DNA from: a virus
Taxonomy: Duplodnaviria > Heunggongvirae > Uroviricota > Caudoviricetes
Direction: 5' to 3' (one strand)
DNA: 36,916 nucleotides
IMG/VR virus record: IMGVR_UViG_2534681999_000017
Position numbers and translations under genes: made by a program. Below the pieces are notes generated by a model. That model saw only the letters and a list, made by a program, of their open reading frames with translations, searched no databases and had not been told where the DNA came from. Shown here in pieces: positions 1 through 36,389 of this stretch (position 1 is the stretch's first letter; every line of letters begins with the position of its first letter).

Positions 1-1932
1 AAGCGGAGGTAATACACCGTAAGAGCTGGAAAAACCGTGCAGAAGTGGAACTGGCCACACTAACGTGGGTGGACTGGTATAACAATCGACGATTGCTGGG
101 AAGGCTGGGCCATACTCCTCCGGCAGAAGCAGAAAAAGCTTATTATGCTTCCATCGGAAACGATGATCTGGCAGCCTGAGTTCACAGATAAAACACTCTC
201 CAGGAAACCCGGGGCGGTTCAGCAGATTATTCCCTGCATCCCCTGTCAGGGTGACACCCTGCGGCAGAGAGGAAACCGGCCAGTAAAGCCCCATGACATA
301 CTGGTTTGCCACCAGGTCGCCAGGTACTTTAAAACGACAACTGATTAAACCACCATTTTTCAGCAGTTCAGCACCAGTACCGGCATCATGATCCAGATAC
401 CAGGATGATTTACCTGTTTCCTTGGTCAGTTTCATTGCCTTACCACCTGTGCCTCCTGCATCACTGATAATTTCAGCTTTACCGCCAGCCGGCTCCCAGC
501 CCTGGGCTTTCAGATTTCCTTCTGACTCACTGACACGATAAGACAGCAGTGTTGTGGTTACTGCTTCAGTTTCTGAAGGTGACGGCACTGGTGCTTCAGT
601 TTCAGAAGATGGAACATCGGCTTTTACTGTGGTTCGCCCCGCATGAGTCAGAACTGCCGTGGCCAGACGGTCGGAAATAATCCCACGACGTGCCCATGAA
701 CTGAAATGGCTGGCCCGGTCCGCAGATGTCCAGGTGGCGGCACTGTTACGCCACGTTGAGCCGTAATAACCAATGGATTCAATATCCGGGTCTTCTGCCG
801 GATTGTTGGTGGGTACATTCGCGTCATTTTCATCTGTCATTAATGGAACGAAATGAATGTTTTTATCTGTTTTGTTTTTGTAGCCGCCATAGATTGCCTG
901 GTATGCCGGTTCATTTTTCTGTTTCCAGAAATACGTGGTATCGCCACAAATCCACGGAACGCCAGCAGCACTGCCACCGGTACACTGTTCCGCCTGTTCA
1001 GCCAGGTCTGCGCGGAATTTTTCCACCATCGCCAGAAACAGCGCGGAATGCTCCGTCGGCTTCGCATCAATATCAAACTCGCCCTGCATCCACACCACAG
1101 CAAGCAGGCGGTTTTTCGGGTTCTTCGCCAGTGCCGCTTTTGTCCGGCTGATTAAGTCCTTATACAGCGGCTTATCCACACCCCAGCGGGCTGAGTCCTC
1201 TGAAGCACCCGTGCTGTCACTGTACGTGCCGTCAGCACCCGCCGTGAATGCAGAACCACCACGGCAGCAGGGAACCAGCAGAATCCCCGCATCTGCCGGA
1301 ATAAACGGCAGCAGTTTTTTGGCAATGTGAAGCCCCTGACCCACGGTGCCATATTGCCCTTTAGCCACATCCGCTTTCGGGTGATTTTTTCCACTCATAT
1401 CCTGCACATCATGCAGACAGTGGTCGGCCAGAATGATGTCGTTATACTGACAGGCTTTACCTCCCGGCGTGACTGTACTGCGACGGGCTAACTGCATAAT
1501 ACGCGGTTCGGGGCGGTCATATGTCTCCGGCAGTGGCAGACCTTCACCGTAAGCCATACCGTTTGACTGACCAGCAAGAACCACCACGTAATACCAGGAA
1601 GGGGAGCTGGAAGCAGTTTCATTTCCTGACGGACGGGTATGTGTTTCAGCATTATCCCAGTCTGACGGTTCAGCAGTACCGGCAACATCAGCACTTAACG
1701 GAATGACCGCACCAATACCCGCTCCGGTAATTTCCACACTCGGATCACCGGATACTGGCCTTACCCACAGGCAATCCCGTGTATTAAAACTGATGAGACA
1801 GTCAGCAAATGTCATTCCTCCTTTTGTTTCGGCCGGAGGAAAGGGAGCCTCAAGAAATGCCGCTGTACCACCGGAAACTTTAACAGTAAAGTTTCCGGGC
1901 ATTGATGATAGTTGAACCCATTTGGACGTCAT
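1..1932 (-). CDS. nanS: NanS-type sialate O-acetylesterase (SGNH/SASA hydrolase) with N- and C-terminal extensions; 3' end unresolved, frame open to window start
   Basis: ATG at 1932 with AGGAACAGG 9 nt upstream and an in-frame stop at 1963-1965; 644 codons without a stop. Contains VVLAGQSNGMAYGEGLPLP, HDVQDM, QYGTVGQGLHIAKKLLPFIP, LVPCCRGGSAFTAG, WMQGEFD, CGDTTYFWK, SHFSSWARRGIISDRL, co-linear with E. coli NanS/YjhS as recalled. Confidence 0.8.
   Translation of the reverse strand, partial: MTSKWVQLSSMPGNFTVKVSGGTAAFLEAPFPPAETKGGMTFADCLISFNTRDCLWVRPVSGDPSVEITGAGIGAVIPLSADVAGTAEPSDWDNAETHTRPSGNETASSSPSWYYVVVLAGQSNGMAYGEGLPLPETYDRPEPRIMQLARRSTVTPGGKACQYNDIILADHCLHDVQDMSGKNHPKADVAKGQYGTVGQGLHIAKKLLPFIPADAGILLVPCCRGGSAFTAGADGTYSDSTGASEDSARWGVDKPLYKDLISRTKAALAKNPKNRLLAVVWMQGEFDIDAKPTEHSALFLAMVEKFRADLAEQAEQCTGGSAAGVPWICGDTTYFWKQKNEPAYQAIYGGYKNKTDKNIHFVPLMTDENDANVPTNNPAEDPDIESIGYYGSTWRNSAATWTSADRASHFSSWARRGIISDRLATAVLTHAGRTTVKADVPSSETEAPVPSPSETEAVTTTLLSYRVSESEGNLKAQGWEPAGGKAEIISDAGGTGGKAMKLTKETGKSSWYLDHDAGTGAELLKNGGLISCRFKVPGDLVANQYVMGLYWPVSSLPQGVTLTGDAGNNLLNRPGFPGECFICELRLPDHRFRWKHNKLFLLLPEEYGPAFPAIVDCYTSPPTLVWPVPLLHGFSSSYGVLPPL
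3..179 (+). mobile_element. IS3-family (rve/DDE integrase-core) transposase, C-terminal fragment cut by the window edge
   Basis: Frame ending at TGA 177-179 reads AEVIHRKSWKNRAEVELATLTWVDWYNNRRLLGRLGHTPPAEAEKAYYASIGNDDLAA, a typical IS3-family OrfB C-terminus (W-x-DWYNN-RR ... PP-AE-E-YY). Confidence 0.45.
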
Positions 1933-2031
1933 AATAATCAGCCTGTTCCTGAATAAACTGAATTATCATATCCACAGACCGATAAACGCCATTTTGCGTT
2001 AATTCAGTAAAGGCCCAACAAAGAGAGCGTC

Positions 2032-2592
2032 TTATTTTTCCGAAACGCTCGCAGGATAATAACGATAAAGGGTTGAAAGGCCGATATCAAAAATAAGTGC
2101 CACCTGTCTTCGACTGACACCCCCGGCCAGTAAACGCCCGACCTGCTCGTATTGTTCCTGCGTGAGACGACGGGGTCTGCCGCCGGTTCGTCCCCTTTCA
2201 CGGGCAGCTGCAAGACCAGCCCGTGTCCGTTCGACAATTAATTCACGCTCCATTTCTGCCAGCGCACCCATTATGTGAAAAAAGAAGCGCCCCATGGGGG
2301 TTGACGTATCAATGTTGTCAGTAAGACTACGAAAATTTATCCCCTGTTGCTGTAATTCATCTGTCAGCGCAACAAGGTGGCGCATACTGCGCCCCAGCCT
2401 GTCCAGTTTCCAGACCATCAGTGTGTCACCGGGTTTTAGTTTCTTCAGTGCCCGCTTCAGTCCCGGCCGCTGTGTCGTTTTACCACTCATTTTATCTTCA
2501 AAAATCTGCTCACATCCTGCACATTCCAGCGCATTTCTTTGTAAACCTGTGTTCTGGTCATTTGTTGATACGCGTATATAGCCAATCAGCAT
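2032..2592 (-). CDS. gin: Serine DNA invertase, Gin/Pin/Cin/Hin family
   Basis: 186 aa, MLIGYIRVSTNDQNTGLQRNALECAGCEQIFEDK...VWKLDRLGRSM...GINFRSLTDNIDTSTPMGRFFFHIMGALAEMERELIVERT; near-identical motif order to Mu Gin and e14 Pin. Confidence 0.93.
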   Translation of the reverse strand: MLIGYIRVSTNDQNTGLQRNALECAGCEQIFEDKMSGKTTQRPGLKRALKKLKPGDTLMVWKLDRLGRSMRHLVALTDELQQQGINFRSLTDNIDTSTPMGRFFFHIMGALAEMERELIVERTRAGLAAARERGRTGGRPRRLTQEQYEQVGRLLAGGVSRRQVALIFDIGLSTLYRYYPASVSEK

Positions 2593-2647
2593 GTATTTAC
2601 CTTCCTTAAAAAGAGGTGGAAAGGCCTTTTAAAGCAGATATACGGCA

Positions 2648-2673
2648 TCCCTGAAACCTTCGGTTTACGGGAT
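2648..2673. other. gix-like crossover site A (gin-proximal), 26 bp imperfect dyad
   Basis: TCCCTGAAACCT TC GGTTTACGGGAT; the inner half (TCCCGTAAACC on the other strand) is shared with site B and matches the Hin/Gin half-site pattern ending AAACC. Confidence 0.6.
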
Positions 2674-2815
2674 ACTGTAAACAGGGCCGCGAATGCCCTG
2701 CCATCGAACGGAGCGGCTGTTGCAGCGAATAAACTCGCCACTCCAAGAAATATTAATGGTGTCCCATTTGACGGAACGCAGGATATAAATATTACATCGG
2801 GGATGACGCAGTCTG
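2663..2815. repeat. Inverted repeat arm 1 of the invertible segment (about 150 bp), encoding the conserved start of the alternative fibre tip
   Basis: High identity to the reverse complement of 3886-4034, for example CTCGCCACTCCAAGAAATATTAATGGTGTCCCATTTGACGGAACGC versus CTCGCCACCCCAAGAAATATTAATGGTGTTCCTTTTGACGGAACGC. Confidence 0.8.
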
Positions 2816-3018
2816 TGGCTGACTCACGTTATGTTCAAAGCATTCGAAGAGGTTCAAGGTCAACGATTGGAATGCAATATAATATTTTTGAGGTTCCTGA
2901 CGGATGCGTACTTACAGGGCTTGATGTCGCTGGTGATGGTAATGCAACGGTAACCGCATATTATCGACCTGTTCAGTTTCTGATAGATGGTTCGTGGAAA
3001 ACAGCTTCCAGCGCATAA
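2674..3018 (+). CDS. Alternative tail-fibre C-terminal tip (Sv'-like exon), no start of its own, silent in this orientation
   Basis: In-frame reading from site A gives ...GLRDTVNRAANALPSNGAAVAANKLATPRNINGVPFDGTQDINITSGMTQSVADSRYVQ...YYRPVQFLIDGSWKTASSA, homologous to the S C-terminus (…ATPRNINGVPFDGTLDINITSGMTQS…YYRPVQIYINNAWRTVSSV). Confidence 0.7.
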   Translation, partial: TVNRAANALPSNGAAVAANKLATPRNINGVPFDGTQDINITSGMTQSVADSRYVQSIRRGSRSTIGMQYNIFEVPDGCVLTGLDVAGDGNATVTAYYRPVQFLIDGSWKTASSA

Positions 3019-3097
3019 AAGTGCAGTAGTTCAAAAAACAGATTATCTGAATAAATATATGATGATTTTGTCTTTTCAACAAAAACAAGGTGAAATA

Positions 3098-3619
3098 ATG
3101 GAGCTTATTAACGTAAAACGATATTACCCGGAACACAAACCCTATGGTGAGGATGTTCAGTATTTCCAGAGTGAGGACGGAAGGGATTTTTATGAATCTA
3201 TCCCGCTTTTCACAAAGAAATACAAACTCTGTATTTCGCCTGTAACGGGTATTATCTGCTCTGTTGCTGAAGATGTCTCTGCTTTATATCCGGCAGGTTT
3301 TACTGTTGTTGAAGTGGACGAACTGCCGGAAGGTGTGAATATTGACGGTAACTGGCAGTTTTCTGATGGCCTGATATCAAAGGTGACGGTAAACTGGAAG
3401 ACGGTTGCTGAAAAGCGCCGCTCATCGCTGCTCCAGGAAGCCAACGAAACTGTGGATGACTGGAAAACGGAATTAAAACTGGACATGATTAGCGATGAAA
3501 ATAAATTACAGCTGACGCGCTGGATGGCGTATATCCGACAGCTTAAAGAAATGCACTTTAATGATATTGCCAGTGAGGGGCATTACCAGGCGATTCCCTG
3601 GCCGGAAAAACCGGAATAA
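3098..3619 (+). CDS. Tail-fibre assembly chaperone (Mu U / Tfa family)
   Basis: ATG at 3098 with AAGGTGA upstream; MELINVKRYYPEHKPYGEDVQYFQSEDGRDFYES...LTRWMAYIRQLKEMHFNDIA...PWPEKPE; the ORF-track start at 2987 is an upstream over-extension. Confidence 0.8.
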   Translation: MELINVKRYYPEHKPYGEDVQYFQSEDGRDFYESIPLFTKKYKLCISPVTGIICSVAEDVSALYPAGFTVVEVDELPEGVNIDGNWQFSDGLISKVTVNWKTVAEKRRSSLLQEANETVDDWKTELKLDMISDENKLQLTRWMAYIRQLKEMHFNDIASEGHYQAIPWPEKPE

Positions 3620-3653: not shown

Positions 3654-4565
3654 TTACACTGAACTTACCGTTCTCCAGGCATTATTAATATAAATCTGAA
3701 CCGGGCGATAATAGACCCCACCGATATTGTCCGCAGACCGGGAGCCGGTTTCCTGCACGTTAATTCCGGAAAGCATACAACCGGAAGGTGCGCTGTAATT
3801 CCATGACATTTCATTGCCTCCGGGTGAATGATAGCTCTGTGCTCCAAGCTGAACATTCTGTACATACCGGCCATCTGCGGTTGACTGCGTCATTCCTGAC
3901 GTGATGTTGATATCCAGCGTTCCGTCAAAAGGAACACCATTAATATTTCTTGGGGTGGCGAGTCTGTTTGCTGCCACGGCGGTTCCACCCGATGGCAGGG
4001 CATCAGCAGCCTTATTTACCGTTTCCCGTAAACCAACGTTATCGATAAAAGCGCCTTTATCCGGAATGTCTGCGCCGTTCTGCTCCCTGCGCAGGTAACG
4101 GTTATCACCTTCGCTTTTGCTGTAAACATCCAGATTATTACGGGCGGTTCCCGCATTCTCCAGGTCGGCAAGGTTCTGATCCTTCGCCAGAGCATTAACG
4201 TCACCGGGACCAAGACTGTTTTTTGTGGCAAGCGCCCCAAGACCAAGATAACCACGGGCAAGACGCTGGGCTTCCGCACCGGCATCAGCAATTTCTTTCA
4301 GGTTGTTTTTCCGGGAAAAGGCATTCGCAGCGATAATGGCTTTAATGGACAGCGTAAGCTGGTTTAACTGCGCCTTATCCGGCTGAATACTGGCTTCAGC
4401 CAGAATATTCAGCAGTTCGGCCTGGAGAATATTCAGCCAGTCCTGACCAATCCAGCTGATACCTTTTTGTCCGTCACCTTCGGTAAACCAGGTGGTGGTA
4501 TTACTCTGCGCCGGTGCCAGCGCAGGCATATTCGCCACGCCGGAATTATTATCAACATGGAACAT
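3654..4565 (-). CDS. Tail fibre protein (Mu S-like), constant part fused to the currently expressed tip
   Basis: True start MFHVDNNSGVANMPALAPAQ at 4565 (ATG overlaps the upstream stop as TAATG); C-terminus ...GVYYRPVQIYINNAWRTVSSV is a P2 H / Mu S-type fibre tip. Confidence 0.85.
   Translation of the reverse strand: MFHVDNNSGVANMPALAPAQSNTTTWFTEGDGQKGISWIGQDWLNILQAELLNILAEASIQPDKAQLNQLTLSIKAIIAANAFSRKNNLKEIADAGAEAQRLARGYLGLGALATKNSLGPGDVNALAKDQNLADLENAGTARNNLDVYSKSEGDNRYLRREQNGADIPDKGAFIDNVGLRETVNKAADALPSGGTAVAANRLATPRNINGVPFDGTLDINITSGMTQSTADGRYVQNVQLGAQSYHSPGGNEMSWNYSAPSGCMLSGINVQETGSRSADNIGGVYYRPVQIYINNAWRTVSSV
3886..4034. repeat. Inverted repeat arm 2 of the invertible segment
   Basis: Reverse complement of this stretch aligns with 2663-2815; homology starts exactly at the shared gix half-site. 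Confidence 0.8.
4023..4048. other. gix-like crossover site B, inside the S tail-fibre coding sequence
   Basis: TTCCCGTAAACC AA CGTTATCGATAA, compared with the Mu gixL sequence as recalled (TTCCTGTAAACC GA GGTTTTGGATAA); inverted relative to site A. Confidence 0.6.
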
Positions 4566-5125
4566 TAAATATTCTCCTCTTCGTGACTGTTTGCATATAC
4601 GTAAATAAACGTCTGCCATGCAGGCTTATAACGGTTCAGAATACATTCCAGCGCACCGCCTTCATAAATACGCAGCGGCGTGAGAATATCATCCAGCACA
4701 TTCATATTCCGGTAGCCGGTTTCACTGTTAATCGTGACAATACTGACCCACTGTGAATCCGGTGATGGCTGAATATCTATTTCATAACCAAACTCTGCCG
4801 CAAACCGGATATAAAATTCACGGTTAAGAGAGGGTTTCATCCGGTATTTATTCCCGGCATAACGCTGACGCTCCTGAATGGTTGCGCCGGTCATATCACA
4901 TTCCGGTAACCCCAGATAACGCTCCCAGTCTTCCAGCAGCAGACGGGATGAATCAGGAAAACGTTCTGCCAGCATCTGGTTACCGGTCCAGGAAACACGC
5001 TCCGTGGAATGACTGAGGCCCAGGCACAAAGCCGCAAGAACGGATGACGGCCGCTTATCCCATGCCAGCCCGTCAGGCAGCAACTGCAACAGGGCGCGCT
5101 GATGCGGGGTCAGGGTTACAGCCAT
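4565..5125 (-). CDS. Baseplate/tail protein, Mu gp48-like (P2 gpI-like)
   Basis: 186 aa ORF in the syntenic position immediately upstream of S; translationally coupled. Confidence 0.7.
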   Translation of the reverse strand: MAVTLTPHQRALLQLLPDGLAWDKRPSSVLAALCLGLSHSTERVSWTGNQMLAERFPDSSRLLLEDWERYLGLPECDMTGATIQERQRYAGNKYRMKPSLNREFYIRFAAEFGYEIDIQPSPDSQWVSIVTINSETGYRNMNVLDDILTPLRIYEGGALECILNRYKPAWQTFIYVYANSHEEENI

Positions 5126-36209: not shown

Positions 36210-36389
36210 AGATCGCAGTATCAAAAGTTTTGCCGATTTTAGAATAAACGATTAATTATTGCACAATCGGTATCAAATAGACTTTAAGCGCTCATCCAGA
36301 CATCACCTGTTTTATTTCAGTATCTTACAGGTGATTTCACCTCCTTTCACTAAAACCCTCGTTGGTATCAAATGATTCACCTGGTTACA
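36210..36389. mobile_element. Prophage c-side terminus with transposase-binding repeats
   Basis: Three direct copies of GTATCAAA(A/T) at 36219, 36270 and 36365; element ends …GGTTACA at 36389, which is 5'-TG on the inward-reading strand; 9-bp inverted repeat ATCACCTGT/ACAGGTGAT at 36302-36335. Confidence 0.6.

Follow-up and report, generated by a model that had tools for sequence, protein, structure and literature searches.

In Mu itself, the position after the gin invertase gene is held by com and mom. In the stretch of DNA analysed here, the 36,916 nucleotides of IMG/VR virus record IMGVR_UViG_2534681999_000017 (Uroviricota; Caudoviricetes; hereafter the window), another gene begins at this point, and the questions it raises are what the gene encodes, whether it is intact and whether it has taken the place of com/mom. 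The window is a Mu-like prophage with the minus-strand gene order baseplate J, Mu gp48, tail fibre, tail-fibre assembly (on the opposite strand) and invertase. A Gin-type serine invertase gene (2032..2592, minus strand) ends 99 nt upstream of an ATG at 1932, from which the reverse-complement translation runs open for 644 codons up to position 1. This frame is absent from the open reading frame (ORF) track because it runs past the window edge, and the minus-strand ORFs that are listed, ending at 833, 1103, 1394 and 1694, lie in another frame (end modulo 3 of 2, versus 0 for 1932). The open frame, its absence from the track and the differing frame of the listed ORFs had been noted correctly in an earlier sequence-only reading, which took the frame for a NanS-type SGNH/SASA esterase gene carried as cargo next to gin, an assignment with which both the domains and the gene context agree. 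We put the probability at roughly 0.85 that positions 220–1932 (minus strand) are the first 571 codons of a NanS-p-type esterase gene of an Sp18-type Mu-like prophage, lying between gin and com/mom, whose last 108 codons were cut off by the insertion sequence (IS) IS1203/IS629.

With NanS-p esterases, enterohaemorrhagic Escherichia coli can feed on the O-acetylated sialic acids of mucin, and a recent report describes one of these enzymes as decorating the capsid of a Shiga toxin (Stx) phage. Mu-like transposable prophages are seen here to carry the same catalytic and lectin cargo, with a different N-terminal module in front that is very rare and associated with phage type. The locus offers a testable handle on whether such enzymes are generally displayed on virions and on the exchange of cargo at linker boundaries.

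Junction between the esterase gene and IS1203/IS629

The intact allele of the gene is ECs_4993 of the Sakai prophage Sp18 ('Mu-like phage'), which is WP_010917876.1 (679 amino acids (aa), annotated as 'hypothetical' or 'DUF6645 domain-containing protein') and starts at the same ATG. The native protein encoded in the window equals this allele over residues 1–571 and diverges from it at residue 572, and the end of the 644-codon translation (…GNNLL|NRPGFPGECFICELRLPDHRF…) is non-native in appearance. Compared base by base with O157:H7 FRIK944, the window showed no similarity up to position 219 and identity from position 220, and phage sequence 100% identical from window position 220 on, never from position 1, was present in 167 complete E. 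coli genomes. Native coding sequence in the window corresponds to 220–1932 (571 codons, 143 residues of which lie past the NanS core).

The window opens inside an IS3-family element, whose right end covers 1..221 (plus strand). Positions 1–225 are 100% identical to annotated IS1203-family copies, thousands of which are spread over E. coli genomes. Alignment of a reference copy (O111:H- 11128, 1,310 bp, terminal inverted repeats TGAACCGCCCCGG…/…CCGGGGCGGTTCA) placed its right end at 221, where the terminal inverted repeat of the window ends in GGGGCGGTTCA. Read in frame 3 of the plus strand, positions 1–179 give …LATLTWVDWYNNRRLLGRLGHTPPAEAEKAYYASIGNDDLAA, the C-terminus of an IS3-family transposase, and this OrfB ends …LGHTPPAEAEKAYYASIGNDDLAA at a TGA stop (177–179). 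Near-identity, the terminal inverted repeat (TG...CA) and the OrfB frame all place the element with IS1203/IS629 in the IS3 family. The junction falls at 219–221, bases 220–221 (CA) fitting both the IS and the native gene, and the 73 codons on the minus strand of positions 1–219 (NRPGFPGECF...) are antisense IS sequence fused in frame to the esterase, not native coding sequence. If the IS follows its consensus, the chimeric frame would end four codons left of the window and encode 648 aa (571 native and 77 antisense-IS). The gene had been thought to run off the window edge; the frame is indeed open to position 1, but its last 73 codons are IS and the native gene is interrupted, so that extending the contig leftwards would reach IS1203 and not the gene's own stop.

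Insertions of IS1203/IS629 in the C-terminal region of nanS-p are known from O157 Stx2a phages (PMC10462455). In the 'CTR3' C-terminal type of these phages, as in the window, an IS within this region alters the end of the protein; unlike the 'CTR3' variants, the window has the insertion in another gene copy, that of a Mu-like prophage, and at another site. Same-site insertion, or recombination with an IS-disrupted nanS-p of a Stx2a phage, was considered and rejected, the flanks there being unrelated to nanS-p. The IS matches in those Stx2a phages overran the IS end by 7–15 nt, and the flank that they appear to share is a chance similarity.

Position relative to gin and com/mom

Intact relatives of the prophage show what lies beyond the esterase, a region that the IS hides in the window. 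In both O157:H7 FRIK944 and Sakai Sp18, the order is gin, esterase, DUF1378, DUF826, a hypothetical gene on the opposite strand, com, mom and the prophage end, with com/mom ~1.2 kb beyond the esterase. Since com and mom are both present past the esterase in these relatives, the module is, judged from them, an insertion between gin and com, and the suggestion that the esterase had replaced com/mom does not hold. Genes for DUF1378 and DUF826 also follow nanS-p in Stx phages, with about half of the residues identical, and there is therefore a three-gene block common to both phage types.

These observations bear directly on the reading in which the gene is an intact nanS-p of more than 644 codons that runs past the window edge and has replaced the com/mom of Mu. 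A frame open to position 1 and a location after gin, at Mu's com/mom site, would suit it, yet it is hardly tenable given that positions 1–221 are IS1203 at 100%, that native sequence is left at codon 572 and that com and mom persist downstream of the esterase in intact relatives. It is also improbable that the junction is an assembly artefact, the contig end having been mis-joined at a repeat and the gene being intact in the real genome. The window does start inside a multicopy IS, as is common for draft contigs, and the junction was found in none of 5,426 complete E. coli genomes, 167 of which carry the gene, uninterrupted in every case. Against an artefact, the IS terminates precisely with its canonical inverted repeat (...GGTTCA, 221) and shares at most two bases with the gene, leaving no common k-mer to cause a mis-join, and IS1203/IS629 within nanS-p is documented for Stx2a phages (PMC10462455). 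The exact abutment of a canonical IS terminus on gene sequence argues for a true insertion over mis-assembly. With the gene read as IS-truncated, annotation of the window copy should record a disrupted gene, one that is not to be counted among full-length nanS-p alleles, and loss of com/mom should not be assumed.

Catalytic core and lectin-like domain

Residues 104–428 (649..1623, minus strand) form a NanS-like SGNH type II/SASA core. This region matched the Pfam SASA profile (PF03629) at 46.1 bits against a cut-off of 24.8, and aligned with the catalytic domain of chromosomal E. coli NanS (YjhS; PDB 3PT5) at E = 1.9e-118, in keeping with the co-linearity proposed from the sequence. The esterase also matched phrog_143 (1027 bits), and no NCBIfam model matched the full-length protein. 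The catalytic residues of NanS are Ser19 and His301; Gln18 contributes to the oxyanion hole, and a catalytic Asp is lacking (PMC9063846, citing Rangarajan et al. 2011). These three residues are conserved, their equivalents in the 3PT5 alignment being Ser123 (in GQSN, 1561–1572; codon 1564–1566), His409 (in RASH; codon 706–708) and Gln122, all of them upstream of the IS cut. The alignment shows a complete catalytic core, that of a predicted SGNH type II hydrolase with a Ser-His dyad and Gln122 as the oxyanion-hole residue. Unlike the window gene, NanS has neither an N-terminal module nor a carbohydrate-binding module (CBM), and lies among chromosomal sialic-acid utilisation genes.

The core is joined to the CBM by a linker (aa 429–458; 559..648, minus strand). 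The motif SETEA, earlier read as the mark of a linker, occurs twice and in both cases within this segment, at aa 443–447 (nt 592–606) and aa 453–457 (nt 562–576). The lectin-like jelly-roll CBM that follows spans residues 459–679 in the intact allele and only 459–571 in the window (220..558, minus strand). Residues 459–674 of the intact allele align with the crystallised C-terminal domain of NanS-p (PDB 6YP6, E = 1e-111), and the DUF6645 profile is covered from 1 to 119 of its 119 positions by the intact allele but only from 1 to 49 by the window copy. The C-terminal extension postulated earlier is indeed the NanS-p lectin-like domain (6YP6, DUF6645), but the size then given, more than 250 aa, has to be reduced to 143 native residues.

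Four aromatic residues of the phi24B CBM (Y510, Y515, Y540 and F611) have been proposed as sugar-binding (PMC10462455), and their counterparts at exact spacing are Y545, Y550, Y575 and F646. The cut after residue 571 keeps Y545 and Y550 and removes Y575 and F646 together with about half of the beta-sandwich. As the alignment shows, the putative lectin-like CBM is broken in the middle of this beta-sandwich, and the window copy would probably be without CBM-mediated glycan targeting. On soluble substrate, the esterase may still be active, since chromosomal NanS needs no CBM to work, while a misfolded chimeric tail could equally well inactivate the protein.

Relative to the NanS-p of a Stx2a phage (annotated yjhS, between stx2 and the lysis genes), identity was 80% in the core, 82% in the linker and 83% in the CBM. 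The likeness to Stx/lambdoid NanS-p proteins (933W z1466/L0105; phi24B vb_24B_21/gp84) also covers the GQSN and RASH motif variants and, in intact relatives, the DUF1378 and DUF826 genes after the esterase gene. What sets the window gene apart from them is its carrier, a Mu-like transposable myovirus; its location after gin and before com/mom, not between stx and lysis genes; an unrelated ~85-aa beta domain instead of DUF1737; and, in the window copy, the missing last 108 residues. Among the features by which NanS-p is recognised, the window copy has a prophage origin, and lacks a complete CBM, DUF1737 and the lambdoid late position (between stx/Q and the lysis genes).

NanS-p enzymes deacetylate mono-, di- and tri-O-acetylated mucin sialic acids and Neu5,9Ac2 (PMC8065619, PMC8319020). 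Given a core identity of 80–87% and these reported activities (PMC8065619), we infer that the window-type enzyme would hydrolyse Neu5,9Ac2 and O-acetylated mucin. Like NanS and NanS-p, it would remove 7/8/9-O-acetyl groups from free and mucin-bound sialic acids (e.g., Neu5,9Ac2 to Neu5Ac), and the de-O-acetylated sialic acids would then become usable by the lysogen and open to sialidases.

The N-terminal domain and its relatives

The similarity to Stx-phage NanS-p does not extend to the N-terminus. Residues 1–103 were ~20% identical to the same Stx2a-phage protein in what was a forced alignment, and DNA similarity to Stx-phage NanS-p genes begins near nt 1587–1596. A linker rich in acidic residues, Ser, Thr and Pro (aa 86–103; 1624..1677, minus strand) marks the similarity boundary and separates the core from the N-terminal domain proper (aa 1–85; 1678..1932, minus strand). 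DUF1737 (PF08410), the candidate identity for this region, gave no Pfam match even at E ≤ 1. The earlier description of the N-terminal ~110 aa as being like that of NanS-p has to be dropped, there being no DUF1737 and no real similarity to the Stx-phage N-terminus. A confident predicted model points to a compact all-beta (cupin/jelly-roll-like) fold, for which the structural matches are generic.

Relatives of this domain are very rare. Among 50,697 phage records, the one source of a match was the same Mu-like prophage, inserted in two Stx phages; a word-indexed search across 5.8 billion proteins gave nothing beyond fragments of the window N-domain itself; and viral contigs scanned with the P0007 N-domain alone gave no match. 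An exhaustive HMMER search of 1.84 billion cluster representatives yielded four matches. Two of these (one from Salmonella, 29% identity) reach past the domain, and both pass through a Pro/Thr/Ser-rich linker into '…YYFV..AGQSN.MAYGEG' esterases. Further searches added more relatives, and W5, G21, P33 and W56 are invariant among the N-domain homologues.

A possible kinship with stand-alone phage proteins was judged with separate profiles for the window type and the stand-alone type and with the external phrog_4772 profile (79 positions). Stand-alone Salmonella proteins of 81 aa match phrog_4772 strongly. Two Salmonella homologues of the window N-domain match it at E = 6.8e-6 and 5e-4 and one homologue does not match, while the window N-domain itself gave a weak match (E = 0.006, aa 3–68 against positions 11–77 of 79); both Salmonella homologues and the window domain cover nearly the whole profile. 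Compared directly in hhalign, the window type and the stand-alone type were linked with a probability of 66% (E = 5.7e-5). The N-terminal ~85 residues are a separate, exchangeable module, not DUF1737, which at the level of sequence profiles is probably related to the phrog_4772 family and differs from the stand-alone phrog_4772 proteins in being fused to an enzyme.

Distribution of N-modules and cores

The window-type N-domain lies in a Mu-like prophage in 4/4 independent loci (the window, L005, L006 and L012), directly after the tail-fibre/invertase module. In Salmonella locus L005 (N-domain identity 29%), Mu-type tail and baseplate genes are followed by the invertase, two small ORFs and then the esterase. 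In the Salmonella/IMG-VR locus L006 (38%), baseplate J, gp48, a fibre gene and DUF4376 precede a 784-aa esterase composed of the N-domain, SASA, DUF6645 and an extra C-terminal piece. In E. coli DEC6C (L012, ~60%), MuA, MuB, Gam, baseplate and invertase genes lead up to a frameshifted esterase copy. This last locus (L012 1–11578) is an internally deleted Mu-like prophage, in which MuA, MuB, kil, gam, gp11 and gp12 are joined directly to baseplate J.

A second N-domain type ('METVEV…WQQL…') heads esterases that lambda-tail-type Salmonella prophages encode downstream of the side tail fibre and DUF4376. The same type has an 81-aa gene of its own, in which the stop codon and the start of a gene for a 343-aa protein share the bases ATGA (L007 9001–10274; also L008 and L009), and in all three loci the pair comes directly after the side tail fibre and DUF4376 genes. 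The 343-aa protein is a homologue of the CBM together with the C-terminal extension in the full-length esterase (321 aa aligned at 37% identity), so that the 81-aa/343-aa pair represents an esterase-less version of the module.

In one of these Salmonella loci, 4–8 kb from the pair, there is a typhoid-toxin-like islet (L007 14330–18246) that encodes Pertussis_S1 (ArtA/PltA-like), a GH108 muramidase and Exo_endo_phos (CdtB-like). Members of the typhoid-toxin family reportedly bind sialoglycans, and the proximity of the islet to a sialoglycan-related module could be meaningful or a coincidence.

The esterase core is distributed differently from the N-modules. Over the first 150 core residues, Mu-type and DUF1737-type proteins were 87% identical to each other within E. 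coli and 93% within Salmonella, and cross-genus pairs were 69–76% identical whichever N-domain they carried. Core similarity is thus higher within a genus, from which it follows that the core homogenises by host genus while the N-module stays with phage type. This pattern indicates exchangeable N-terminal modules, and the breakpoint of their exchange is, by these alignments, in the flexible linker. In partial database entries (P0009–P0018) for prophage esterases of E. coli and Salmonella, the PEYYxV..AGQSN core comes behind no fewer than five other, unrelated N-termini, among them MKYIYSGPPTG… (P0012), MSRRVMSYSGYPL… (P0010/P0016), MGIFIGLTPG… (P0011/P0013) and MPILAPGFLGG… (P0015); some of these may be artefacts of partial gene calls.

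The NanS/NanS-p family, its CBM and the disruption of such genes by IS are already known, and the protein is in RefSeq. In the literature searched, there was no mention of ECs4993 and no link of Sp18 or Mu-like phages with NanS, and we found no earlier description of a Mu-like-prophage variant with a non-DUF1737 N-module, or of N-modules sorting by phage type and cores by genus.

Possible roles of the N-module and the enzyme

The DUF1737 of phi24B gp84 is a decoration domain on capsid hexons, and the protein is processed at its linkers (bioRxiv 10.64898/2026.04.10.717836). Both DUF1737 and the window N-domain are small N-terminal modules that a flexible linker connects with an esterase and CBM of the same kind, and both families occur mostly as stand-alone small phage proteins. 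In contrast to DUF1737, a helix with three strands, the window N-domain has a predicted all-beta barrel or sandwich fold and no sequence similarity to it; virion binding has been demonstrated for DUF1737 and is hypothesised for the window domain. By this analogy, the N-domain might serve as an adaptor tying the enzyme to the Mu-type virion or to its assembly. That the phrog_4772-family domain is an exchangeable virion-anchoring adaptor, the counterpart of DUF1737 in Mu-type and lambda-tail-type phages, is a tentative proposal that we consider doubtful. If it were true, unrelated enterobacterial temperate phages would display the same esterase/lectin cargo by swapping a docking module at a flexible linker, and virion display of mucus-glycan-modifying enzymes would be a general phage strategy and not a peculiarity of Stx podoviruses.

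Overlapping with the IS-truncated-cargo reading is one in which the protein is mainly a virion-associated enzyme, and less a metabolic enzyme of the lysogen, whose N-domain would anchor the esterase and CBM to the Mu-type capsid or tail and so let the phage bind and modify O-acetylated sialoglycans in mucus or on cell surfaces. The capsid-decorating DUF1737 of phi24B NanS-p (bioRxiv 10.64898/2026.04.10.717836) is its precedent, and several features of the loci point the same way: the N-domain type tracks phage type and the core tracks host genus, the domain family includes stand-alone phage proteins of ~81 aa just as DUF1737 does, an esterase-less gene pair of N-domain and CBM sits beside the tail-fibre genes of lambda-type Salmonella prophages, and the gene always comes directly after the tail-fibre, assembly and invertase module. 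Set against these, the fold matches are generic, the end of a late operon is also a classic place for non-structural cargo genes, and the link between N-domain and phage type could stem from vertical descent alone, which leaves this role possible though on balance unlikely. The substrate might also be a bacterial surface polysaccharide (O-acetylated O-antigen or capsule) in place of sialic acid, the esterase modifying receptors in the manner of SGNH esterase tailspikes. This was raised for NanS-p in a review (PMC8065619) and would suit a gene that adjoins tail-fibre genes, but we hold it to be very improbable, as the core is 80–87% identical to that of Stx-phage NanS-p, the NanS match is strong (E = 1.9e-118), the atypical motifs are the same, and NanS and NanS-p are both documented deacetylases of Neu5,9Ac2 and of the sialic acids of mucin (PMC8065619, PMC8319020).

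Expression, prophage ends and right-end cargo

A promoter and terminator scan of positions 1–3000 gave counts equal to those of shuffled controls, with nothing usable between gin and the esterase. The 99-nt gap and a weak AGG ~9 nt upstream of the ATG are compatible with expression of the esterase by read-through from gin. Upstream of gin, the two arms of a 185-nt inverted repeat (77% complementary; 2653–2837 and 3859–4043) enclose the tail-fibre segment that Gin can invert. A 321-aa fibre ORF (3654–4619, minus strand) and a 210-aa assembly ORF (2987–3619, plus strand) face each other here, and the segment is therefore in one of two G-segment-like orientations.

The other prophage end lies at 36389, where the sequence finishes …CAAATGATTCACCTGGTTACA, the reverse complement of a TGTA… Mu-type end. 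Host ddpB/ddpC sequence follows from 36390, this prophage copy being inserted in the D,D-dipeptide transporter operon. Its relatives occupy ureC in FRIK944 and sorM in Sakai or lie within Stx phages (LC727881, LC727895), the scatter expected of a transposable phage. In the Salmonella Mu-type prophage L006 (10470–12840), genes for a DUF1353 protein and a C-5 cytosine DNA methyltransferase come next after the esterase, and com/mom were not seen among the annotated ORFs of that locus. Lineages of Mu-like prophages thus seem to differ in their right-end cargo.

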